Source: a phage
Direction: 5' to 3' (one strand)
Length of the DNA: 39,336 nt
Sequence record: PV991107.1
A program made the translations under genes and the position numbers. The notes beneath the pieces were generated by a model. It saw nothing but the letters and a program-made list of their open reading frames with translations. It did not search any database and was not told the DNA's origin. Position 1 is the first letter of the stretch. Each line of letters starts with the position of its first letter. Positions 14,989 to 22,703 of the stretch are shown one piece after another.

Positions 14989-15146
14989 TGTGGAAGACTA
15001 CCTACCTATTCTTGGACGGCTCTGAGATGCTTGGGTGGCGTTATACAAGCATTGAGTCTGCCTACATGGTGGCTGCTGAGGCCCTGACTTCCGGTAAGAA
15101 CCCGACGATGATTGGGTTTAAGGTAACTAAGGAGGTGACGCATTGA
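14985..15146 (+). CDS. Small hypothetical protein (53 aa) between Rz and large terminase
   Basis: ATG overlapping Rz stop, SD GAAGGAG upstream, stop overlaps terminase TTG start; no counterpart at this position in T7. Confidence 0.35.
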
Positions 15147-16906
15147 GTAAAGACTTAGTGGCGCGTCAGGCGCTAATGACTTCCCGCATGAAGGCAGACT
15201 TCGTGTTCTTCCTGTTCGTCCTGTGGAAAGCTCTGTCACTCCCAGTCCCGACTCGCTGTCAGATTGACATGGCAAAGAAACTATCGGCTGGGGACAACAG
15301 GCGCTTCATCTTACAGGCGTTCCGTGGTATCGGGAAGTCCTTCATTACGTGTGCCTTCGTGGTCTGGAAGCTCTGGAACAACCCGGACTTGAAGTTCATG
15401 ATTGTGTCGGCCTCAAAGGAACGAGCCGATGCTAACTCCATCTTCATCAAGCGAATAATCGACCTCATGCCTCAGCTTAAGGAACTCAAACATAAGCAGG
15501 GGCAGCGAGATGCGGTTATCAGCTTCGACGTTGGACCAGCCAAGCCAGACCACTCACCTTCGGTTAAGTCCGTTGGTATCACTGGTCAGTTGACTGGTAG
15601 TCGTGCTGACATCCTGATTGCCGATGACGTGGAGGTTCCGAACAACTCAGCGACTCAGTCTGCACGAGACCGTCTGTCAGAGCTTGTGAAAGAGTTCGAC
15701 GCTATCCTGAAGCCGGGAGGTACAATCATCTATCTGGGTACTCCTCAGAACGAGATGACCCTGTACCGTGAGTTGGAAGGTCGTGGGTACACCACTACCA
15801 TCTGGCCTGCTCGTTATCCACGCGACAGGAAGGACTGGCAGTCTTACGGTGACCGTCTGGCACCGATGCTTCAGGCAGAGCTGGAAGAGGACCCTGAGTC
15901 CTTCTACTGGCGTCCGACCGATGAAGTACGATTCGATGATACGGACCTGAAGGAACGTGAGCTGTCCTATGGTAAAGCTGGCTTCGCGCTACAGTTCATG
16001 CTTAACCCTAACCTGAGTGATGCAGAGAAGTACCCTCTGAAGCTCCGTGACCTTATCGTAGCAGACTTGGACCCAGCGTCTAGCCCAATGGTATACCAAT
16101 GGCTTCCTAACCCTCAGAACAAGCGTGAGGACGTTCCTAACGTTGGACTCATAGGTGACTCATACCACACGTATCAGACTGTAGGTTCTGCCTTCAGTTC
16201 GTACACCCAGAAGATTCTAGTCATTGACCCTAGTGGTCGTGGTAAGGATGAAACTGGTTATGCGGTACTGTACCAGCTAAACGGCTACATCTTCGCTATG
16301 GAAGTTGGCGGTATGCGAGGTGGCTATGAAGACTCTACGCTGGAAGCCTTGGCTAAGATTGGTCGTAAGTGGAAGGTCAACGAATACGTCATTGAGGGTA
16401 ACTTCGGTGATGGTATGTACCTTGAGCTATTCAAGCCTGTAGCTTCCCGTATTCATCCTGCTGCTGTAACTGAAGTGAAGAGTAAGGGTCAGAAGGAACT
16501 CCGCATCTGTGACGTTCTGGAGCCTATCATGGGGTCTCACCGACTTATCGTTAACGCTGCTGCTATCGTCCAAGATTACCAGTCTGCCTCTGATAAGGAT
16601 GGTGTTCGTAATCCTATCTACTCTCTCTTCTACCAGATGACACGTATCTCTCGTGAACGTGGAGCATTGGCACACGATGACCGACTTGATGCGCTGGCTA
16701 TCGGTGTACAGTTCTTCGTTGAGTCTATGGCGAAGGATGCCAACAAAGGCGAACGTGAAGTCACTGAGGAGTGGCTGGAGGAACAGATGGAGAACCCACG
16801 GAAAGGCTTCGAGTCCATCCACACTGAGTTCTGGGACAATGGGGTCCGGGTAACTCACGATACGGACGACGAGCTGGGGCTAGGGTCCTACGTTACGTTC
16901 CACTAG
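15143..16906 (+). CDS. Terminase large subunit / DNA maturase B (T7 gene 19 homolog), TTG start
   Basis: 587 aa (T7 gp19 586 aa); strong similarity throughout (..[46 protein letters not shown].. , ..[20 protein letters not shown]..); TTG preceded by AAGGAGG at 7-nt spacing. Confidence 0.95.
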
Positions 16907-17395: not shown

Positions 17396-17436
17396 CTAAG
17401 GTCAGTTCATAGCTGACGCTACTCTACTGACCTTAG
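17396..17436 (+). other. Perfect 11-bp inverted repeat (CTAAGGTCAGT ... ACTGACCTTAG) with 19-nt loop
   Basis: Read directly; lies just downstream of the gene 19.5-like ORF near the right genome end. Confidence 0.6.
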
Positions 17437-17518
17437 CTACTGTAGTCAAGGACTTTAGGTAACACCTTAATAGAAGCTCACTTAGGGTCATCCTACTTAT
17501 TGGTCTATCCTAGTGTCG

Positions 17519-17564
17519 CCTGACCTACGGTCCTTGACCTACAGTAGCTGCCACCTACGGTCAC
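17519..17564 (+). repeat. Short-repeat array (CCTACGGT/CCTACAGT-type) on the right-end side of the terminal repeat
   Basis: CCTGACCTACGGTCCTTGACCTACAGTAGCTGCCACCTACGGTCAC. Confidence 0.6.
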
Positions 17565-17598
17565 TCGATGAGTTTTGGACCAAAAGTTTGAGACCACA

Positions 17599-17812
17599 TC
17601 TCACAGTTCAAGAACCTCAAGTCTCCCCCATAGGCCCTCTTTCAGTCAGACCAAAGGCCCTACCCGTTGCTGCTCCTTGCAGTCACAGCCAGTCTATCAT
17701 AAGGTTAGACCGATGGTCAAGACGTTAGGTCAACGATAGGTCTAGGCTATGGCTTAGGGAAGGACGATAGGTAGTGACTATGGGTCTGTCTCTGAGTCTC
17801 TATCTGTATAAC
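17599..17812 (+). repeat. Candidate direct terminal repeat (single collapsed copy) containing the genome left end
   Basis: Starts TCTCACAGT...CCCCCATAGG and ends ..GTCTGTCTCTGAGTCTCTATCTGTATAACC, paralleling the first and last bases of the T7 160-bp terminal repeat as I recall them; flanked on both sides by short-repeat arrays as in T7. Confidence 0.45.
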
Positions 17813-17975
17813 CATAGGTCCTACAACCTACAGTCCTACAACCATAGGTCCTACACCTACAGTCCTACAACCTACAGTCCTACAACCTACAGTAACAACC
17901 ATAAGACACTCACATCCTACAGTCATAGACCTACAGTTAATAGACACAAAGCTATAGACTTAAGGTCACAGACAT
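17813..17975 (+). repeat. Array of about 10-12 degenerate 8-15 bp tandem repeats (CCTACAGT / CCATAGGT / CTTAAGGT)
   Basis: CATAGGTCCTACAAC CTACAGTCCTACAAC CATAGGTCCTACAC CTACAGTCCTACAAC CTACAGTCCTACAAC CTACAGTAACAAC ...; analogous to the CCTAAAG arrays next to the T7 terminal repeat. Confidence 0.8.
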
Positions 17976-18050
17976 GTTAGTCAAAGACTATATCCTATTA
18001 CTCACCATGGGGCCGACGATAGCTTAATCAATATTATTTAAGATTACCTA

Positions 18051-18079
18051 TTGACTACAGGTCCAGACTATGGCTTAAT
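18051..18079 (+). promoter_or_regulatory. Candidate host sigma70 early promoter (A1-like)
   Basis: TTGACT - 17 nt - CTTAAT; same architecture and relative position as T7 A1 (TTGACT-17-GATACT). Confidence 0.35.
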
Positions 18080-18191
18080 AGCTTCCGTCAACACGACACG
18101 GCAACAACCGGATAGTGAAGACGCCGGGTCATCCCGGTTAAGTAGACAGCCTGATAAGTCATACGAACAACAGGCAGATGACAGAAAGTAG

Positions 18192-18221
18192 TTGACAAGA
18201 TGTACCGACTTAAAGTAGTAT
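18192..18221 (+). promoter_or_regulatory. Candidate host sigma70 early promoter (A2/A3-like)
   Basis: TTGACA - 18 nt - TAGTAT about 200 nt upstream of the first early gene. Confidence 0.4.
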
Positions 18222-18425
18222 GTACCACATCAACACGAAACAACGGTGACGACCAACACTGAAACGGTCTACCTGAAGTCCTCTGACTGAAGGGAATGCT
18301 CTTTAACAATCTGGATAAACTCTTAATGTGCGCCGACAGTGGTTAACTACAGGGTCTTTGAGTCTACATCTGAAGGCCCTGACTGATAGTCACTAACATA
18401 CAATTAACTTTGAGAGGATATAACT

Positions 18426-18929
18426 ATGGAACGTAATGCTAATGCATACTATGAGCTGCTGGCTGCAACCGTTGAGGCATTTATCGAGCGTATTCAGTAC
18501 GACCACCTGACTCAAGATGATGACTACAGCGATGCGCTGCATGAAGTCGTAGACGGTCAAGTTCCGCACTATTACCACGAGATTTTCACGGTGATGGCTG
18601 CTGATGGCATAGACCACGAGTTCGAAGACTCTGGGCTGATGCCTGAAACCAAGGACGTAACGCGTATCCTACAAGCTCGCATCTATGAGGCGCTTTATAA
18701 CGATGTGTCTAATAGCTTGGATGTAGTCTGGTTTGAGGATGAAGAGGCAGACGAAGAGGATGAATATTGGGTAGTTGACGCTAAAACAGGCGAGATAATT
18801 GTGCAAGCTGTAGCTCTTGAGGTCGCTACTGCATGTGCCGAGGTCAACTATGCGGCAGGCCGCCACCTGAAGGTGGAAGACATCAATGATAACGTAGTGT
18901 TCGACCCTGCGGCTGAGGACTGCGAGTGA
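18426..18929 (+). CDS. ocr: Ocr-like DNA-mimic anti-restriction protein (T7 gene 0.3 homolog) with about 50-aa C-terminal extension
   Basis: ..[46 protein letters not shown].. matches the core of T7 Ocr as recalled; very acidic; 167 aa versus 117 aa in T7; SD GAGAGGA. Confidence 0.8.
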
Positions 18930-19083
18930 TGATAACTTACGGTTTATGCCAGCACCACGTCACCAACGCCAGGATTTTGGTCAAAACCGGGCGGTTAAAC
19001 CACGAGGAGGCCATGCGTCTCTTGAAAGTGGTCTACAGGAGACGCAAGCGCATACACGATAGTTTACACACTGAGTGATAGAC

Positions 19084-19123
19084 GAGAGGTCATCGACTGA
19101 TAGGTGGCCTCAAAGATTATCAC
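19084..19123 (+). promoter_or_regulatory. RNase III-like processing hairpin (R0.3-like)
   Basis: GAGAGGTCATCGACTGATAGGTGGCCTCAAAGATTATCAC; shares AGGTCAT...GTGGCCT core with the other three sites. Confidence 0.45.
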
Positions 19124-19144
19124 TTAAATTGATAGGAGTTAACT

Positions 19145-19312
19145 ATGAAATTTACAGGAATAGCACTTTACGTAACGATTATTATGGCGTGGCTGACTGC
19201 GGTATTCACTGATGGGAACGCATTACGACTAGGCTGGATGGCAGTGGATATTATCTTCTCTCCGGTAGGGGTCGTGCGGGGCACCTTGATGTGGTTTGGA
19301 TTGGCGGGATAA
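19145..19312 (+). CDS. Small membrane protein (55 aa), early region (gene 0.4-like position)
   Basis: ATG after AGGAG; MKFTGIALYVTIIMAWLTAVF.. predicted TM helix; coordinates hand-placed. Confidence 0.4.
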   Translation: MKFTGIALYVTIIMAWLTAVFTDGNALRLGWMAVDIIFSPVGVVRGTLMWFGLAG

Positions 19313-19400
19313 ACTATGAGTGTGGGATATTTGGTATGCCTGTCTCCGGTCATCTTTCTGATAGCTTGGGGATATACGATTGTATTAAACGGAAATCACT

Positions 19401-19598
19401 ATGAGTAGCACACTATTGATAGCCATAGGCTATGTACTTATCGCCTACGTGCTGGTGAGAGACATCAACAAGGCACGTAAAGTCTACAAATTCAACTATG
19501 TACGTATGGTCCGCTGGACTGTACGTCAACCTAACGGACGATTCCTGCGCAATTTAGCGAACGTCTGGGATATAGCAACTCTTGGGAGCAAACTGTAA
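19401..19598 (+). CDS. Small membrane-anchored early protein (65 aa)
   Basis: ORF track; N-terminal hydrophobic helix LLIAIGYVLIAYVLV then basic tail; stop overlaps next start (TAATG). Confidence 0.4.
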   Translation: MSSTLLIAIGYVLIAYVLVRDINKARKVYKFNYVRMVRWTVRQPNGRFLRNLANVWDIATLGSKL

Positions 19599-19924
19599 TG
19601 AACAAGTCATACGGGATTAATCTGGTACACTCTATGGACGCAGAAATGAACATGTTAAGCCTACTGGCTACCGGGTATCGTCACGGAACGTCAAGTCACA
19701 CCGCACGTCAACAGCAGGAGCGGGACCGTGTACTACAGGCGCGACTCCGGGCAGAGGGCCATAAGTCCGAACTGATGTGTCTGGCGTATGGCGGACGACC
19801 ACTAACAGACGATGGTAAACTTTTAGTCTCAGGCTGGAAGGCGATAGACCAGCGGTCAACCATCAAGCACACGACCAAAGGTGACTTCAGTCATCTTCAC
19901 GCTAACCCACTGATATGCAAGTAA
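19598..19924 (+). CDS. Hypothetical early protein (108 aa)
   Basis: ORF track; translationally coupled to upstream ORF; occupies the slot where T7 has the 0.7 protein kinase but is far too short to be a kinase. Confidence 0.45.
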   Translation: MNKSYGINLVHSMDAEMNMLSLLATGYRHGTSSHTARQQQERDRVLQARLRAEGHKSELMCLAYGGRPLTDDGKLLVSGWKAIDQRSTIKHTTKGDFSHLHANPLICK

Positions 19925-19929
19925 TTATG

Positions 19930-19952
19930 ACTTAACTATCACTATAGGACTC
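19930..19952 (+). promoter_or_regulatory. Phage RNAP promoter immediately upstream of the RNAP gene
   Basis: ACTTAACTATCACTATAGGACTC, same variant as the site at 17001; +1 about 19947, 75 nt upstream of the gene 1 ATG. Confidence 0.7.
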
Positions 19953-20021
19953 AAGGTCTAAGACTCCAAGTGAAAGACCAAAGAGACTCTAAGTGAAAGA
20001 CTAATAACAAGGACTTTAAGT

Positions 20022-22703
20022 ATGAGCGTCATCTCTATTGACAAACACGACTTCTCTGATGTGTCGAACGCCATTGAGCCGTTTAACCTGCTGGCTGACC
20101 ACTACGGGCAAGACCTTGCAGTCAAACAGCTTCAGCTTGAGCATGAGGCATATACAGAAGGCGAGCGACGTTTCATCAAGAACCTTGAGCGCCAGACCGA
20201 GCGCGGGGAACTGGCAGACAATCAGGTCGCCAAGCCTTTGATGCAGACTCTGGTGCCTGAGATTGCGCAAGCAGTCAAGGAGTGGCACGAAGGCCAAGAC
20301 GGGAAGCTGTCAACCTCTCGTCCTAGCGTAGCGTTCACCATGTTGAGCACTGAAGAGAAGGCCGTAAAGGACCGCTCTCTGCGCATCTCCTGTGAGTCTG
20401 CTGCGGTTATCATACTGAAGGTCATTCTCTCCAAGCTGGTCAAGCCTGAAGGGATACCGATTACACCGATGGCCTCCGCGATAGGTCGCACACTTGAGGA
20501 CGAAATCCGCTTCGGTCGCATCCGTGACAAAGAGAAAGAGCACTTCAAGAAGGCGATAGCTGATAACCTGAATAAGCGGGCCGGGGCGTCATACAAGAAA
20601 GCCTACATGCAAGCGGTCGAGGCGTCCATGCTGGAGCAAGGCCAACTGGAAGATGCGTGGGGGACTTGGAGTCCTACAGAGGCTGTCCACGTTGGCATCA
20701 AGATGCTCGAGATTGTCATCCAGTCAACACAACTGGTCGAGCTTAAGCGGTACGGTGCTGGTAATGCAGCGGCTGACGTAGAGATGGTCCACCTGTCAGA
20801 CTTCTGGGTCAAGAAGATGGCACAACGAGGATTCAGCCTTGCGGGTATCGCTCCAGTCTACCAGCCTTGCGTCGTTCCACCTAAGCCGTGGACTGGTGTC
20901 GTAGGTGGTGGGTACTGGGCCAAAGGTCGCAGACCGTTACCATTGATTCGCTTAGGGTCTAAGTCTGCGGTAGCACGTTATGAAGACGTATACATGCCTG
21001 AAGTCTATGACGCTGTGAACATCATTCAGAATACACCTTGGAAAGTTAACAAGAAGGTTCTGGACGTGGTGAACATGGTCGAGAAGCTGAACAACACGCC
21101 TATTGATGACATCCCTCAGATGGAGCCACTGAAGCCTGAGGACTATGCGGGTGAGACTGAAGAAGAACTCAAGGCATGGAAGAAGGCTGCTGCTGGTATC
21201 TATCGCCGCGAGAAGGCCAGACAGTCACGCAGATTATCACTGAGCTTTATCGTTAACCAAGCAAACAAGTTCTCTCAGTTCAAGGCCATCTGGTTCCCGT
21301 ACAACATGGATTGGCGAGGTCGTGTCTACGCTGTCCCGATGTTCAACCCTCAGGGTAACGACATGCAGAAGGGTCTACTGACTCTGGCGGTCGGAAAGCC
21401 TATCGGGGCGGATGGTTTCAAATGGCTTAAAGTCCACGGTGCAAACTGTGCGGGTGTCGATAAAGTCACCTTCGAGGAGCGCATCAAGTGGGTGGAAGAC
21501 AACCACGAAAACATCATGGCTGCTGCTAAGGCACCGATGGATAGTATTGAGTGGTGGGGCAAGTTAGACTCTCCGTTCTGTTTCCTCGCGTTCTGCTTCG
21601 AGTATGCTGGCGTAATGCACCACGGCCTGTCTTACTCCTGCTCGCTGCCGATAGCGTTCGATGGGTCCTGCTCTGGTATTCAGCACTTCAGTGCGATGCT
21701 TCGTGACCACATCGGTGGACATGCAGTAAACCTGACGCCATCCGGTAAGGTACAAGACATCTACCGCATTGTGTCTGACCGCATTGAGGAGGCGCTTAAA
21801 GTCCTGCTGGTTAACGGTACGGACAACGAGATGGTGACTCACGAGGACAAGAAAACTGGTGAGATTACCGAACGTCTCAAGCTGGGGACACGAGAGCTGG
21901 CCCGTCAGTGGCTGCAATTCGGTATGTCTCGCTCGGTCACTAAGCGTTCGGTCATGACTCTGGCCTACGGGTCGAAAGAGTATGGGTTCGCCGACCAAGT
22001 GTTCGAAGACACCGTGATGCCAGCGATTGACTCCGGTAAGGGAGCAATGTTCACCGAGCCAAGCCAAGCGTCTCGCTTCATGGCTAAGATGATTTGGGAA
22101 GCTGTGAGTGTGACAGTAGTTGCTGCGGTTGACGCGATGAAGTGGCTTCAAGGTGCCGCTAAGCTGCTGGCTGCTGAAGTGAAGGACAAGAAGACTGGTG
22201 AAATCCTGAAGCCATGCCTTCCGGTACACTGGGTCACACCTGATGGGTTCCCGGTCTGGCAGGAATACCGCAAGAAGGATACCACTCGTCTGAACCTGAT
22301 GTTCTTAGGGTCCTTCAACCTTCAACCTACGGTCAACAAAGGTACGAAGAAAGAGCTGGACAAGCACAAGCAGGAGTCAGGCATTAGCCCGAACTTCGTC
22401 CACTCACAAGATGGTAGCCACCTCCGCAAGACTGTAGTCCACACTCACCGAAAGTATGGCGTGATGTCATTCGCAGTGATTCACGATAGCTTCGGGACCA
22501 TCCCGGCTGACGCTGAGTATCTGTTCCGTGGCGTCCGTGAGACGATGGTAGAGACTTACCGCGATAACGATGTGCTGCTTGACTTCTACGAGCAGTTTGA
22601 ATACCAGCTTCATGAAAGTCAGCGCGACAAGTTGCCTGAGCTTCCGAAGAAAGGTAAACTGAATATCGAAGACATCTTGTCTTCAGACTTTGCATTCGCT
22701 TAA
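20022..22703 (+). CDS. Single-subunit DNA-directed RNA polymerase (T7 gene 1 homolog)
   Basis: 893 aa (T7 RNAP 883 aa); extensive similarity including C-terminal ..HDSFGTIPADA..VRETMV.TY..DFYEQF..QLHESQ.DK.P.LP.KG.LN..DIL.SDFAFA. Confidence 0.97.
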   Translation: MSVISIDKHDFSDVSNAIEPFNLLADHYGQDLAVKQLQLEHEAYTEGERRFIKNLERQTERGELADNQVAKPLMQTLVPEIAQAVKEWHEGQDGKLSTSRPSVAFTMLSTEEKAVKDRSLRISCESAAVIILKVILSKLVKPEGIPITPMASAIGRTLEDEIRFGRIRDKEKEHFKKAIADNLNKRAGASYKKAYMQAVEASMLEQGQLEDAWGTWSPTEAVHVGIKMLEIVIQSTQLVELKRYGAGNAAADVEMVHLSDFWVKKMAQRGFSLAGIAPVYQPCVVPPKPWTGVVGGGYWAKGRRPLPLIRLGSKSAVARYEDVYMPEVYDAVNIIQNTPWKVNKKVLDVVNMVEKLNNTPIDDIPQMEPLKPEDYAGETEEELKAWKKAAAGIYRREKARQSRRLSLSFIVNQANKFSQFKAIWFPYNMDWRGRVYAVPMFNPQGNDMQKGLLTLAVGKPIGADGFKWLKVHGANCAGVDKVTFEERIKWVEDNHENIMAAAKAPMDSIEWWGKLDSPFCFLAFCFEYAGVMHHGLSYSCSLPIAFDGSCSGIQHFSAMLRDHIGGHAVNLTPSGKVQDIYRIVSDRIEEALKVLLVNGTDNEMVTHEDKKTGEITERLKLGTRELARQWLQFGMSRSVTKRSVMTLAYGSKEYGFADQVFEDTVMPAIDSGKGAMFTEPSQASRFMAKMIWEAVSVTVVAAVDAMKWLQGAAKLLAAEVKDKKTGEILKPCLPVHWVTPDGFPVWQEYRKKDTTRLNLMFLGSFNLQPTVNKGTKKELDKHKQESGISPNFVHSQDGSHLRKTVVHTHRKYGVMSFAVIHDSFGTIPADAEYLFRGVRETMVETYRDNDVLLDFYEQFEYQLHESQRDKLPELPKKGKLNIEDILSSDFAFA

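Follow-up and report, generated by a model that had tools for sequence, protein, structure and literature searches.

The window analysed here, a stretch of 39,336 nucleotides of phage DNA (PV991107.1), seems to hold a complete genome in circularly permuted form. The source phage is K1F-like (Kayfunavirus), with the physical ends of its genome probably near 17.0-17.8 kb; an array of T7-style short repeats with a 15-nt period (CCTACAGTCCTACAA-like), typical of T7-like left ends, was found at 17803-17937. A coding sequence of 167 aa was identified on the + strand at 18426..18929, uninterrupted from its ATG start to its TGA stop, which is the homologue of gene 0.3 and encodes a K1F-type long Ocr. 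A Shine-Dalgarno sequence GAGAGGA (18412..18418, +), read off the sequence, is located 7 nt 5' of the ATG. The initial annotation had placed the 167-aa frame at exactly these coordinates, and every peptide string quoted in it was found. Upstream of ocr, a 587-aa ORF (15143..16906) was taken as the terminase large subunit, since homologous contigs have a 587-aa Terminase-T7_RNaseH-like gene at this place.

From the promoter candidate onwards, the order was ocr, a gp0.4-family gene, further small early genes and, at 20022..22703, the gene for RNA polymerase. The candidate for a sigma-70-type early promoter, TTGACA-18-TAGTAT (18192..18221, +), has 10/12 consensus matches and lies about 200 nt upstream of ocr, as the only + strand sigma-70-like site within 17400-20100. 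The total of sigma-70-like sites in the region was not above the shuffle expectation, so this candidate rests on its position and on analogy with the T7 early promoters. The placement of ocr behind a candidate host-type promoter, at what would be the entering end of a T7-like genome, agrees with its initial description as an early gene.

The gene following ocr (18929..19078, +, 49 aa) belongs to the T7 gp0.4 family (PHROG 5058), with PF26807 (Phage_T7_GP04) matched on its homologues in loci L064, L065 and L069. In T7, gp0.4 is an inhibitor of FtsZ. The ATG of the 49-aa gene overlaps the ocr stop by 1 nt (TGATG), which suggests translational coupling, and the same overlap is present in K1F. A natural in-frame fusion, in which the ocr C-domain described below was joined to the C-terminus of the gp0.4-family gene, was observed in one protein cluster (P0097). 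No gp0.7 protein kinase was encoded between ocr and the RNA polymerase gene (19079-20021), with just small uncharacterised ORFs there, matching PHROG 7319 (19145-19312), PHROG 2385 (19401-19598) and PHROG 7066 (19598-19924).

Ocr is the textbook DNA-mimic anti-restriction protein, and the T7 Ocr dimer blocks type I restriction-modification (R-M) and BREX. The core of the present protein, residues 1-103 (18426..18734, +), matched Pfam PF08684 (ocr) over residues 8-95 (18447-18710) at E 4.7e-30 and 104.5 bits, where 25 bits is the cut-off, and the 167-aa protein matched PHROG 2568 'ocr-like anti-restriction' with E 5.3e-54. Residues 11-113 were aligned with the T7 Ocr chains 1s7z/2y7c without internal gaps (E 1.9e-25), the identity to T7 Ocr being 61.5% over residues 17-94. 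F54 was invariant among 57 aligned homologues and aligned without gaps with F54 of T7. The core carries 22 acidic and 5 basic residues, and the whole protein 42 acidic and 8 basic with a pI of 4.05; T7 Ocr has 34 acidic and 6 basic residues and a pI of about 4. Thus the core homology claimed at the outset was upheld by the Pfam, PHROG and PDB alignments, with F54 and the acidic character retained. In the AF2 model the core was predicted to be all-helical (helices 7-26, 35-59, 63-67 and 75-96), at moderate pLDDT of 51-86 by block. T7 Ocr (gp0.3) shares with it the homologous core, the conserved F54 and acidic loops, the pI near 4 and the early position upstream of gp0.4, while the last third of T7 helix D is replaced here by an 'NDVSNSxDVVWFE' segment typical of the MERNANAYY-type subfamily. 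Judged from these alignments, the gene encodes a genuine T7 Ocr relative of the phage K1F gene 0.3 type. F54 is needed for Ocr dimerisation and for full R-M/BREX inhibition, is kept in 93% of Ocr homologues, and when changed to V allows escape from PARIS (PMC9122126).

The core is followed by a polyacidic linker, residues 104-113 (18735..18764, +), which aligns to T7 Ocr residues ~106-116. Since this acidic run corresponds to the acidic tail of T7 Ocr, the part free of a T7 counterpart is residues 114-167 (54 aa), close to the extension of about 50 residues first proposed. The run that had been regarded as an additional one is therefore the equivalent of the T7 tail, serving here as a linker, and what had been called a non-acidic tail is a compact, conserved domain, predicted as beta-beta-alpha-beta-beta, with a net charge of -5. 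T7 Ocr ends after its acidic tail at 117 aa; in the present protein this stretch leads into a folded domain of 48 residues, closed by EDCE. The linker was predicted to be disordered (pLDDT <50 at residues 107-110 in the AF2 full-length model), and its length among homologues varied from 0 to ~22 residues, the zero-length case being CLB_P1 (...WFEGEYWVVD). The terminal acidic tail, AAEDCE plus the stop (18909..18929, +), is common to the short Ocr proteins of Kayfunavirus and Przondovirus, for example CR44b (...EESDEEDCE) and KP32 (...EEEDCDD), and many IMG/VR loci end alike.

The C-terminal accessory domain (C-domain), residues 114-161 (YWVVD...VVFDP; 18765..18908, +), was modelled alone by AF2 with 23 homologues at pLDDT 90.8 and pTM 0.74, giving strands at 114-118, 124-129, 148-151 and 157-159 and a helix at 131-143. 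Identical elements were obtained in the full-length model, for which the overall pTM was 0.47. This low value, together with the low-confidence linker, suggests a domain without fixed docking on the core. The C-domain has 8 acidic and 3 basic residues. According to these models, it is a small conserved domain that is predicted to fold independently. No in-frame start with a Shine-Dalgarno sequence was present ahead of residue 114 from which a free domain could be translated.

Selection on the gene was estimated by pooled Nei-Gojobori counts from a codon alignment of 15 Kayfunavirus genes. The dN/dS values, which are descriptive because the sequence pairs are non-independent, were 0.14 for the core (residues 1-103) and 0.29 for the C-domain (residues 114-161), and within the latter 0.17 for the strands and 0.58 for the helix (residues 130-147). 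Synonymous divergence was ample, with dS of 0.36-0.55 and about 0.47 for the extension. The C-domain is under purifying selection, at a dN roughly 2.6 times that of the core. Weak constraint, and not an arms race, may account for the value of the helix.

Column entropies over 120 proteins revealed conserved buried positions in the helix (L131, A134, C137 and Y142) and variable positions at 123, 124, 126, 127, 132, 133, 140, 141 and 144, which fall between the buried helix positions and on strand 2. W115, T121, G145, H147, V150, V157, V158 and P161 were invariant or nearly so in the domain. The top-conserved exposed stretch was the acidic V150-E-D-I-N-D-x-V-V-F-D-P161 (18873-18908), and its VED(D) motif with a nearby His was kept in all three divergent subtypes of long Ocr. 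Its conservation makes the stretch V150-P161 the leading candidate for a functional patch. The idea that C137, H147 and C166 form a metal site was considered and found unsupported, since both cysteines are missing and the His is shifted in the subtypes represented by IME15 and Kc166A.

The ocr gene was 96-97% identical in DNA to those of about 40 Kayfunavirus coliphage genomes, the nearest genomes with other Kayfunavirus long Ocr being at 97% DNA identity. It is the ordinary gene 0.3 of the K1F-like group, in GenBank since 2005 and part of PHROG 2568. The 'antirestriction protein' of K1F gene 0.3 (AAZ72964, 169 aa) has the same architecture, with 92% identity in the core and 67% in the C-domain, and differs from the present protein by allelic differences only, concentrated in the exposed C-domain helix (SLYEAIACAKELYEEGFHMQ in K1F). 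In the phage collection searched, the Ocr core was present in 586 records and the C-terminal 55 residues in 71 of them, always within ocr and once per genome. Among the best 120 of 501 protein clusters the proteins were 162-179 aa long, covered the whole query and were encoded by an unbroken ORF. The initial comparison of 167 with 117 aa is thus correct as a difference from T7, but the length is normal for the lineage, being that of the standard K1F gp0.3 type (71 records).

Three divergent subtypes of long Ocr could be recognised, in about 81 of the 586 Ocr-carrying phage records. The second subtype (9 records) was found in Stenotrophomonas phage IME15, Teseptimavirus Ebrios and several Aeromonas phages, and the third in Kosakonia phage Kc166A (183 aa). 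These proteins of 172-183 aa come from other genera, some of which also have the gp0.7 kinase, and they show the core-linker-domain architecture of the present one. The C-domains of the subtypes are about 30% identical to one another and the cores about 80%; the C-domains of the IME15 and Kc166A types have ~28-35% identity to the present domain, with tails lacking the DCE motif, and the IME15 core is 79% identical to the present core. A pattern common to the long subtypes is W-x-V ... G ... A ... Y..G ... VED ... V-x-[FY]-x-P. The extension is best viewed as a domain family of its own within the acidic tail of some Ocr proteins, not modelled by Pfam and previously uncharacterised. That it compensates for an absent gp0.7 kinase in host shut-off was rejected, since CR44b is without both and Ebrios is with both.

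A full-text literature search found no description of the extension and no functional study of any long Ocr. Mentions of 'DNA mimic ocr' in Kayfunavirus genomes stayed at the level of annotation, for example ORF 2 of Hafnia phage Ca (169 aa; PMC8861465). In several GenBank records ocr is mis-annotated as 'protein kinase' or 'similar to N4-like RNA polymerase', the records with ocr mis-annotation being OM355495 (ZH4), OM937123 (CY1), MZ398247 (IME177), OR594182/OR594184 (SHAK7854/9454) and PV611674 (CHX131). In CHX131 (PV611674) the gene 3' of ocr, at the gp0.4 position, was annotated as 'NinH protein'.

Short MERNANAYY-type Ocr proteins of 109-116 aa are encoded by Kayfunavirus CR44b, Przondovirus KP32, Vectrevirus and Caroctavirus, with cores 78-90% identical to the present one. 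They share the acidic stretch, and CR44b and KP32 also the terminal EEDC(E/D), but they are without the C-domain block of 53 codons. A DNA alignment with five short-form loci (L013, L014, L017, L019 and L021) revealed that long and short forms differ by a single clean in-frame block of 159 nt (53 codons), the junction lying in GAGGA(T/C) microhomology with its upstream copy at 18756..18761 (+) and its downstream copy at 18915..18920 (+). This clean block, together with the EDCE tail common to the short proteins, places the domain inside the acidic tail and not after it.

The domain was missing from CR44b and from many IMG/VR Kayfunavirus loci, and this repeated loss indicates that it is dispensable in some settings. 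In Salmonella phage PRF-SP4, Ocr (127 aa) retains just 'SVVFDHAAAEDCE', the last strand and the tail, which looks like a deletion remnant. With domain dN about 2.6-fold above the core, the ~30% identity between subtypes is compatible with, though no proof of, an old domain that was then lost repeatedly.

Two further lesions of ocr were observed in metagenomic loci. In L063-L065 (Logan SRR33193082-84), an extra G (+1) within TGGG at codons Y114/W115 (corresponding to ~18765-18772 of the window) cut Ocr to 117 aa (...EEDEYWGS*) and left the C-domain as an orphan 59-aa ORF (P0126). This may be a genuine truncation in nature, or else a sequencing error in the homopolymer. In L069-L071, from three unrelated Logan runs, a Kc166A-type ocr carried a 378-nt in-frame deletion, which fused the first 10 codons (MERNTNAYYD) to the latter half of the C-domain; the remnant of 57 aa (P0129) lacks the Ocr core. 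Such a null allele in nature agrees with counter-selection of ocr by defences that sense its product.

Relatives of the C-domain were sought outside ocr. A C-domain profile gave nothing credible against the PDB, the best match being a botulinum toxin at E 0.034, and against 1.84 billion representative proteins it gave five matches, of which the two inspected were repetitive proteins. Word-indexed profile searches of a 5.8-billion-protein index returned just fragments or derivatives of long Ocr genes. The domain alone matched nothing in Pfam and PHROGs except a sub-threshold HTH_64; plasmids searched with the C-domain gave zero matches, and none was confirmed in GTDB species genomes searched with one degenerate pattern. 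These negatives are weaker than they appear, because three of the C-domain profile searches missed the long Ocr family itself, presumably since the cluster representatives were short forms or the word index skipped them.

By structure, a Foldseek search of the domain against the PDB gave no match with E <1, the top four including Dmd and AcrIF9. The small phage inhibitor proteins Dmd (the T4/RB69 antitoxin) and AcrIF9, and also ClpS, have no sequence similarity to the C-domain, and their Foldseek values (E >1, probability <=0.2) are no evidence of homology or shared function. A fold like that of ClpS or the ribosomal L7/L12 C-terminal domain was not recovered, with a ClpS superposition of 41 residues only. 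Matches in BFVD (E>=0.013, TM up to 0.79) were small uncharacterised phage proteins of 45-90 aa. As modelled, the C-domain has the fold of a generic small alpha/beta unit common in short phage proteins, from which no function was inferred.

For the mode of action, residues 1-103 would form a T7-Ocr-like helical monomer. Two monomers would pair through the conserved region around F54 to give a bent polyanionic rod shaped like B-DNA, and this rod would fill the cleft that binds DNA in type I R-M methyltransferase/endonuclease complexes and in BREX PglX. The flexible polyacidic linker 104-113 would join this core to the 48-residue domain. In crystals of T7 Ocr each monomer has its C-terminus at the distal end of the dimer; long Ocr would accordingly have one domain per monomer, tethered flexibly by the acidic linker to either tip and away from the central mimic surface. 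That long Ocr dimerises, counteracts restriction and has its domains at the tips is inferred by analogy. Long Ocr would be made first, from the promoter used by the host RNA polymerase, giving the phage protection ahead of the entry of its remaining DNA. In agreement with an active Ocr, a Kayfunavirus isolate of the BASEL collection, which may carry a long or a short Ocr, is reported to be sensitive mainly to type II and III R-M, type I not being named (PMC11990801). Among other Ocr homologues, Gp5 of SP6 inhibits the BREX system of Salmonella (PMC11341690).

The extension may alter the target range or add a second function, as had been supposed at first, and this plausible reading is favoured here. 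The conserved scaffold, the variable exposed helix, the conserved acidic loop, the tolerance to linker length and the repeated clean loss are best fitted by a protein-binding module. That long Ocr functions as a dimer, each tip of which bears one tethered accessory domain for protein binding, is, by analogy with T7 Ocr, somewhat more probable than otherwise. The domain would then be an accessory protein-protein interaction module making a second, bivalent contact, either with the defence complexes already bound by the core or with some other protein of the host or its defences, and this contact would widen the range or affinity of long Ocr. The naming of any specific partner is much less certain and is speculative.

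Several other explanations have to be weighed against the tethered interaction module. The extra residues might be due to an overlooked stop codon, to a frameshift or to read-through into an adjoining ORF, and the metagenomic population with the +1 G at Y114/W115, encoding a 117-aa Ocr and an orphan 59-aa ORF, is a point in favour of such an artefact. It is hardly credible for the present gene, as 70 GenBank phage records contain the full-length ORF (80-100% coverage), which was also unbroken in the best 120 of 501 clusters, and the extension is under purifying selection (dS ~0.47) and has a confident predicted fold; neither the length of the ORF nor its stop codon is an assembly artefact. The domain might also be a structural passenger without a partner, which stabilises, solubilises or caps the acidic tail or slightly extends the polyanionic surface. 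Its net acidity (8 acidic and 3 basic residues), the acidic nature of its top-conserved exposed stretch (VEDINDN) and its repeated loss with no obvious compensating change in the core would all suit such a role. Yet the Ocr proteins of T7, SP6, KP32 and CR44b lack it, a globular beta-beta-alpha-beta-beta unit is unlike a DNA-like surface, and the keeping of the fold across three ~30%-identical subtypes, with strand dN/dS of 0.17, is more constraint than a cap needs, so that we regard this role as unlikely.

Another explanation concerns the systems that sense Ocr. It triggers PARIS (PMC9122126) and, likewise, both EcoR22I, a type III system, and the decoy of Ronin (bioRxiv 10.1101/2023.04.06.535777), which brings pressure to disguise the protein. 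The C-domain could then hide Ocr, sterically or electrostatically, from PARIS AriA, the Ronin HsdMS decoy and EcoR22I while leaving R-M/BREX inhibition intact, and the repeated natural lesions of ocr (the L063-L065 frameshift and the L069-L071 core deletion) agree with selection by sensors. The exposed domain helix also evolves fast. Against this, F54, whose change frees T7 from PARIS, stays invariant, and the domain is absent from many close relatives. The Ocr rod is roughly 8 nm long and would gain poor steric cover from so small a domain, whose flexible linker has 0 to ~22 residues. Such a shield is rather improbable. The C-domain could instead act as an anti-defence effector fused to Ocr, neutralising or blinding guards of the PARIS, Ronin or EcoR22I type or blocking a second defence. 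By this reading long Ocr would disarm restriction and silence the alarm that it otherwise triggers, and the three subtypes would be allelic specificities of an arms race; we hold it to be possible but unlikely.

Ocr is central to the work on BREX inhibition and on anti-restriction guard systems (PARIS and Ronin), and to our knowledge the mechanistic work on Ocr was all done with the 117-aa T7 protein. The version with an extra domain, which is conserved, fast-evolving and repeatedly lost, was present in about one-seventh of the Ocr-carrying phage records of the searched collection, and many of the phages with long Ocr are K1- and O-antigen-specific coliphages that are therapeutic candidates. 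The precise natural in-frame deletions provide matched controls for the domain. If the domain is only a structural appendage, the result is a refinement of annotation and a domain family new to Pfam. If it adds a target or hides Ocr from its sensors, long Ocr would be a compact natural counter-defence protein with two functions.
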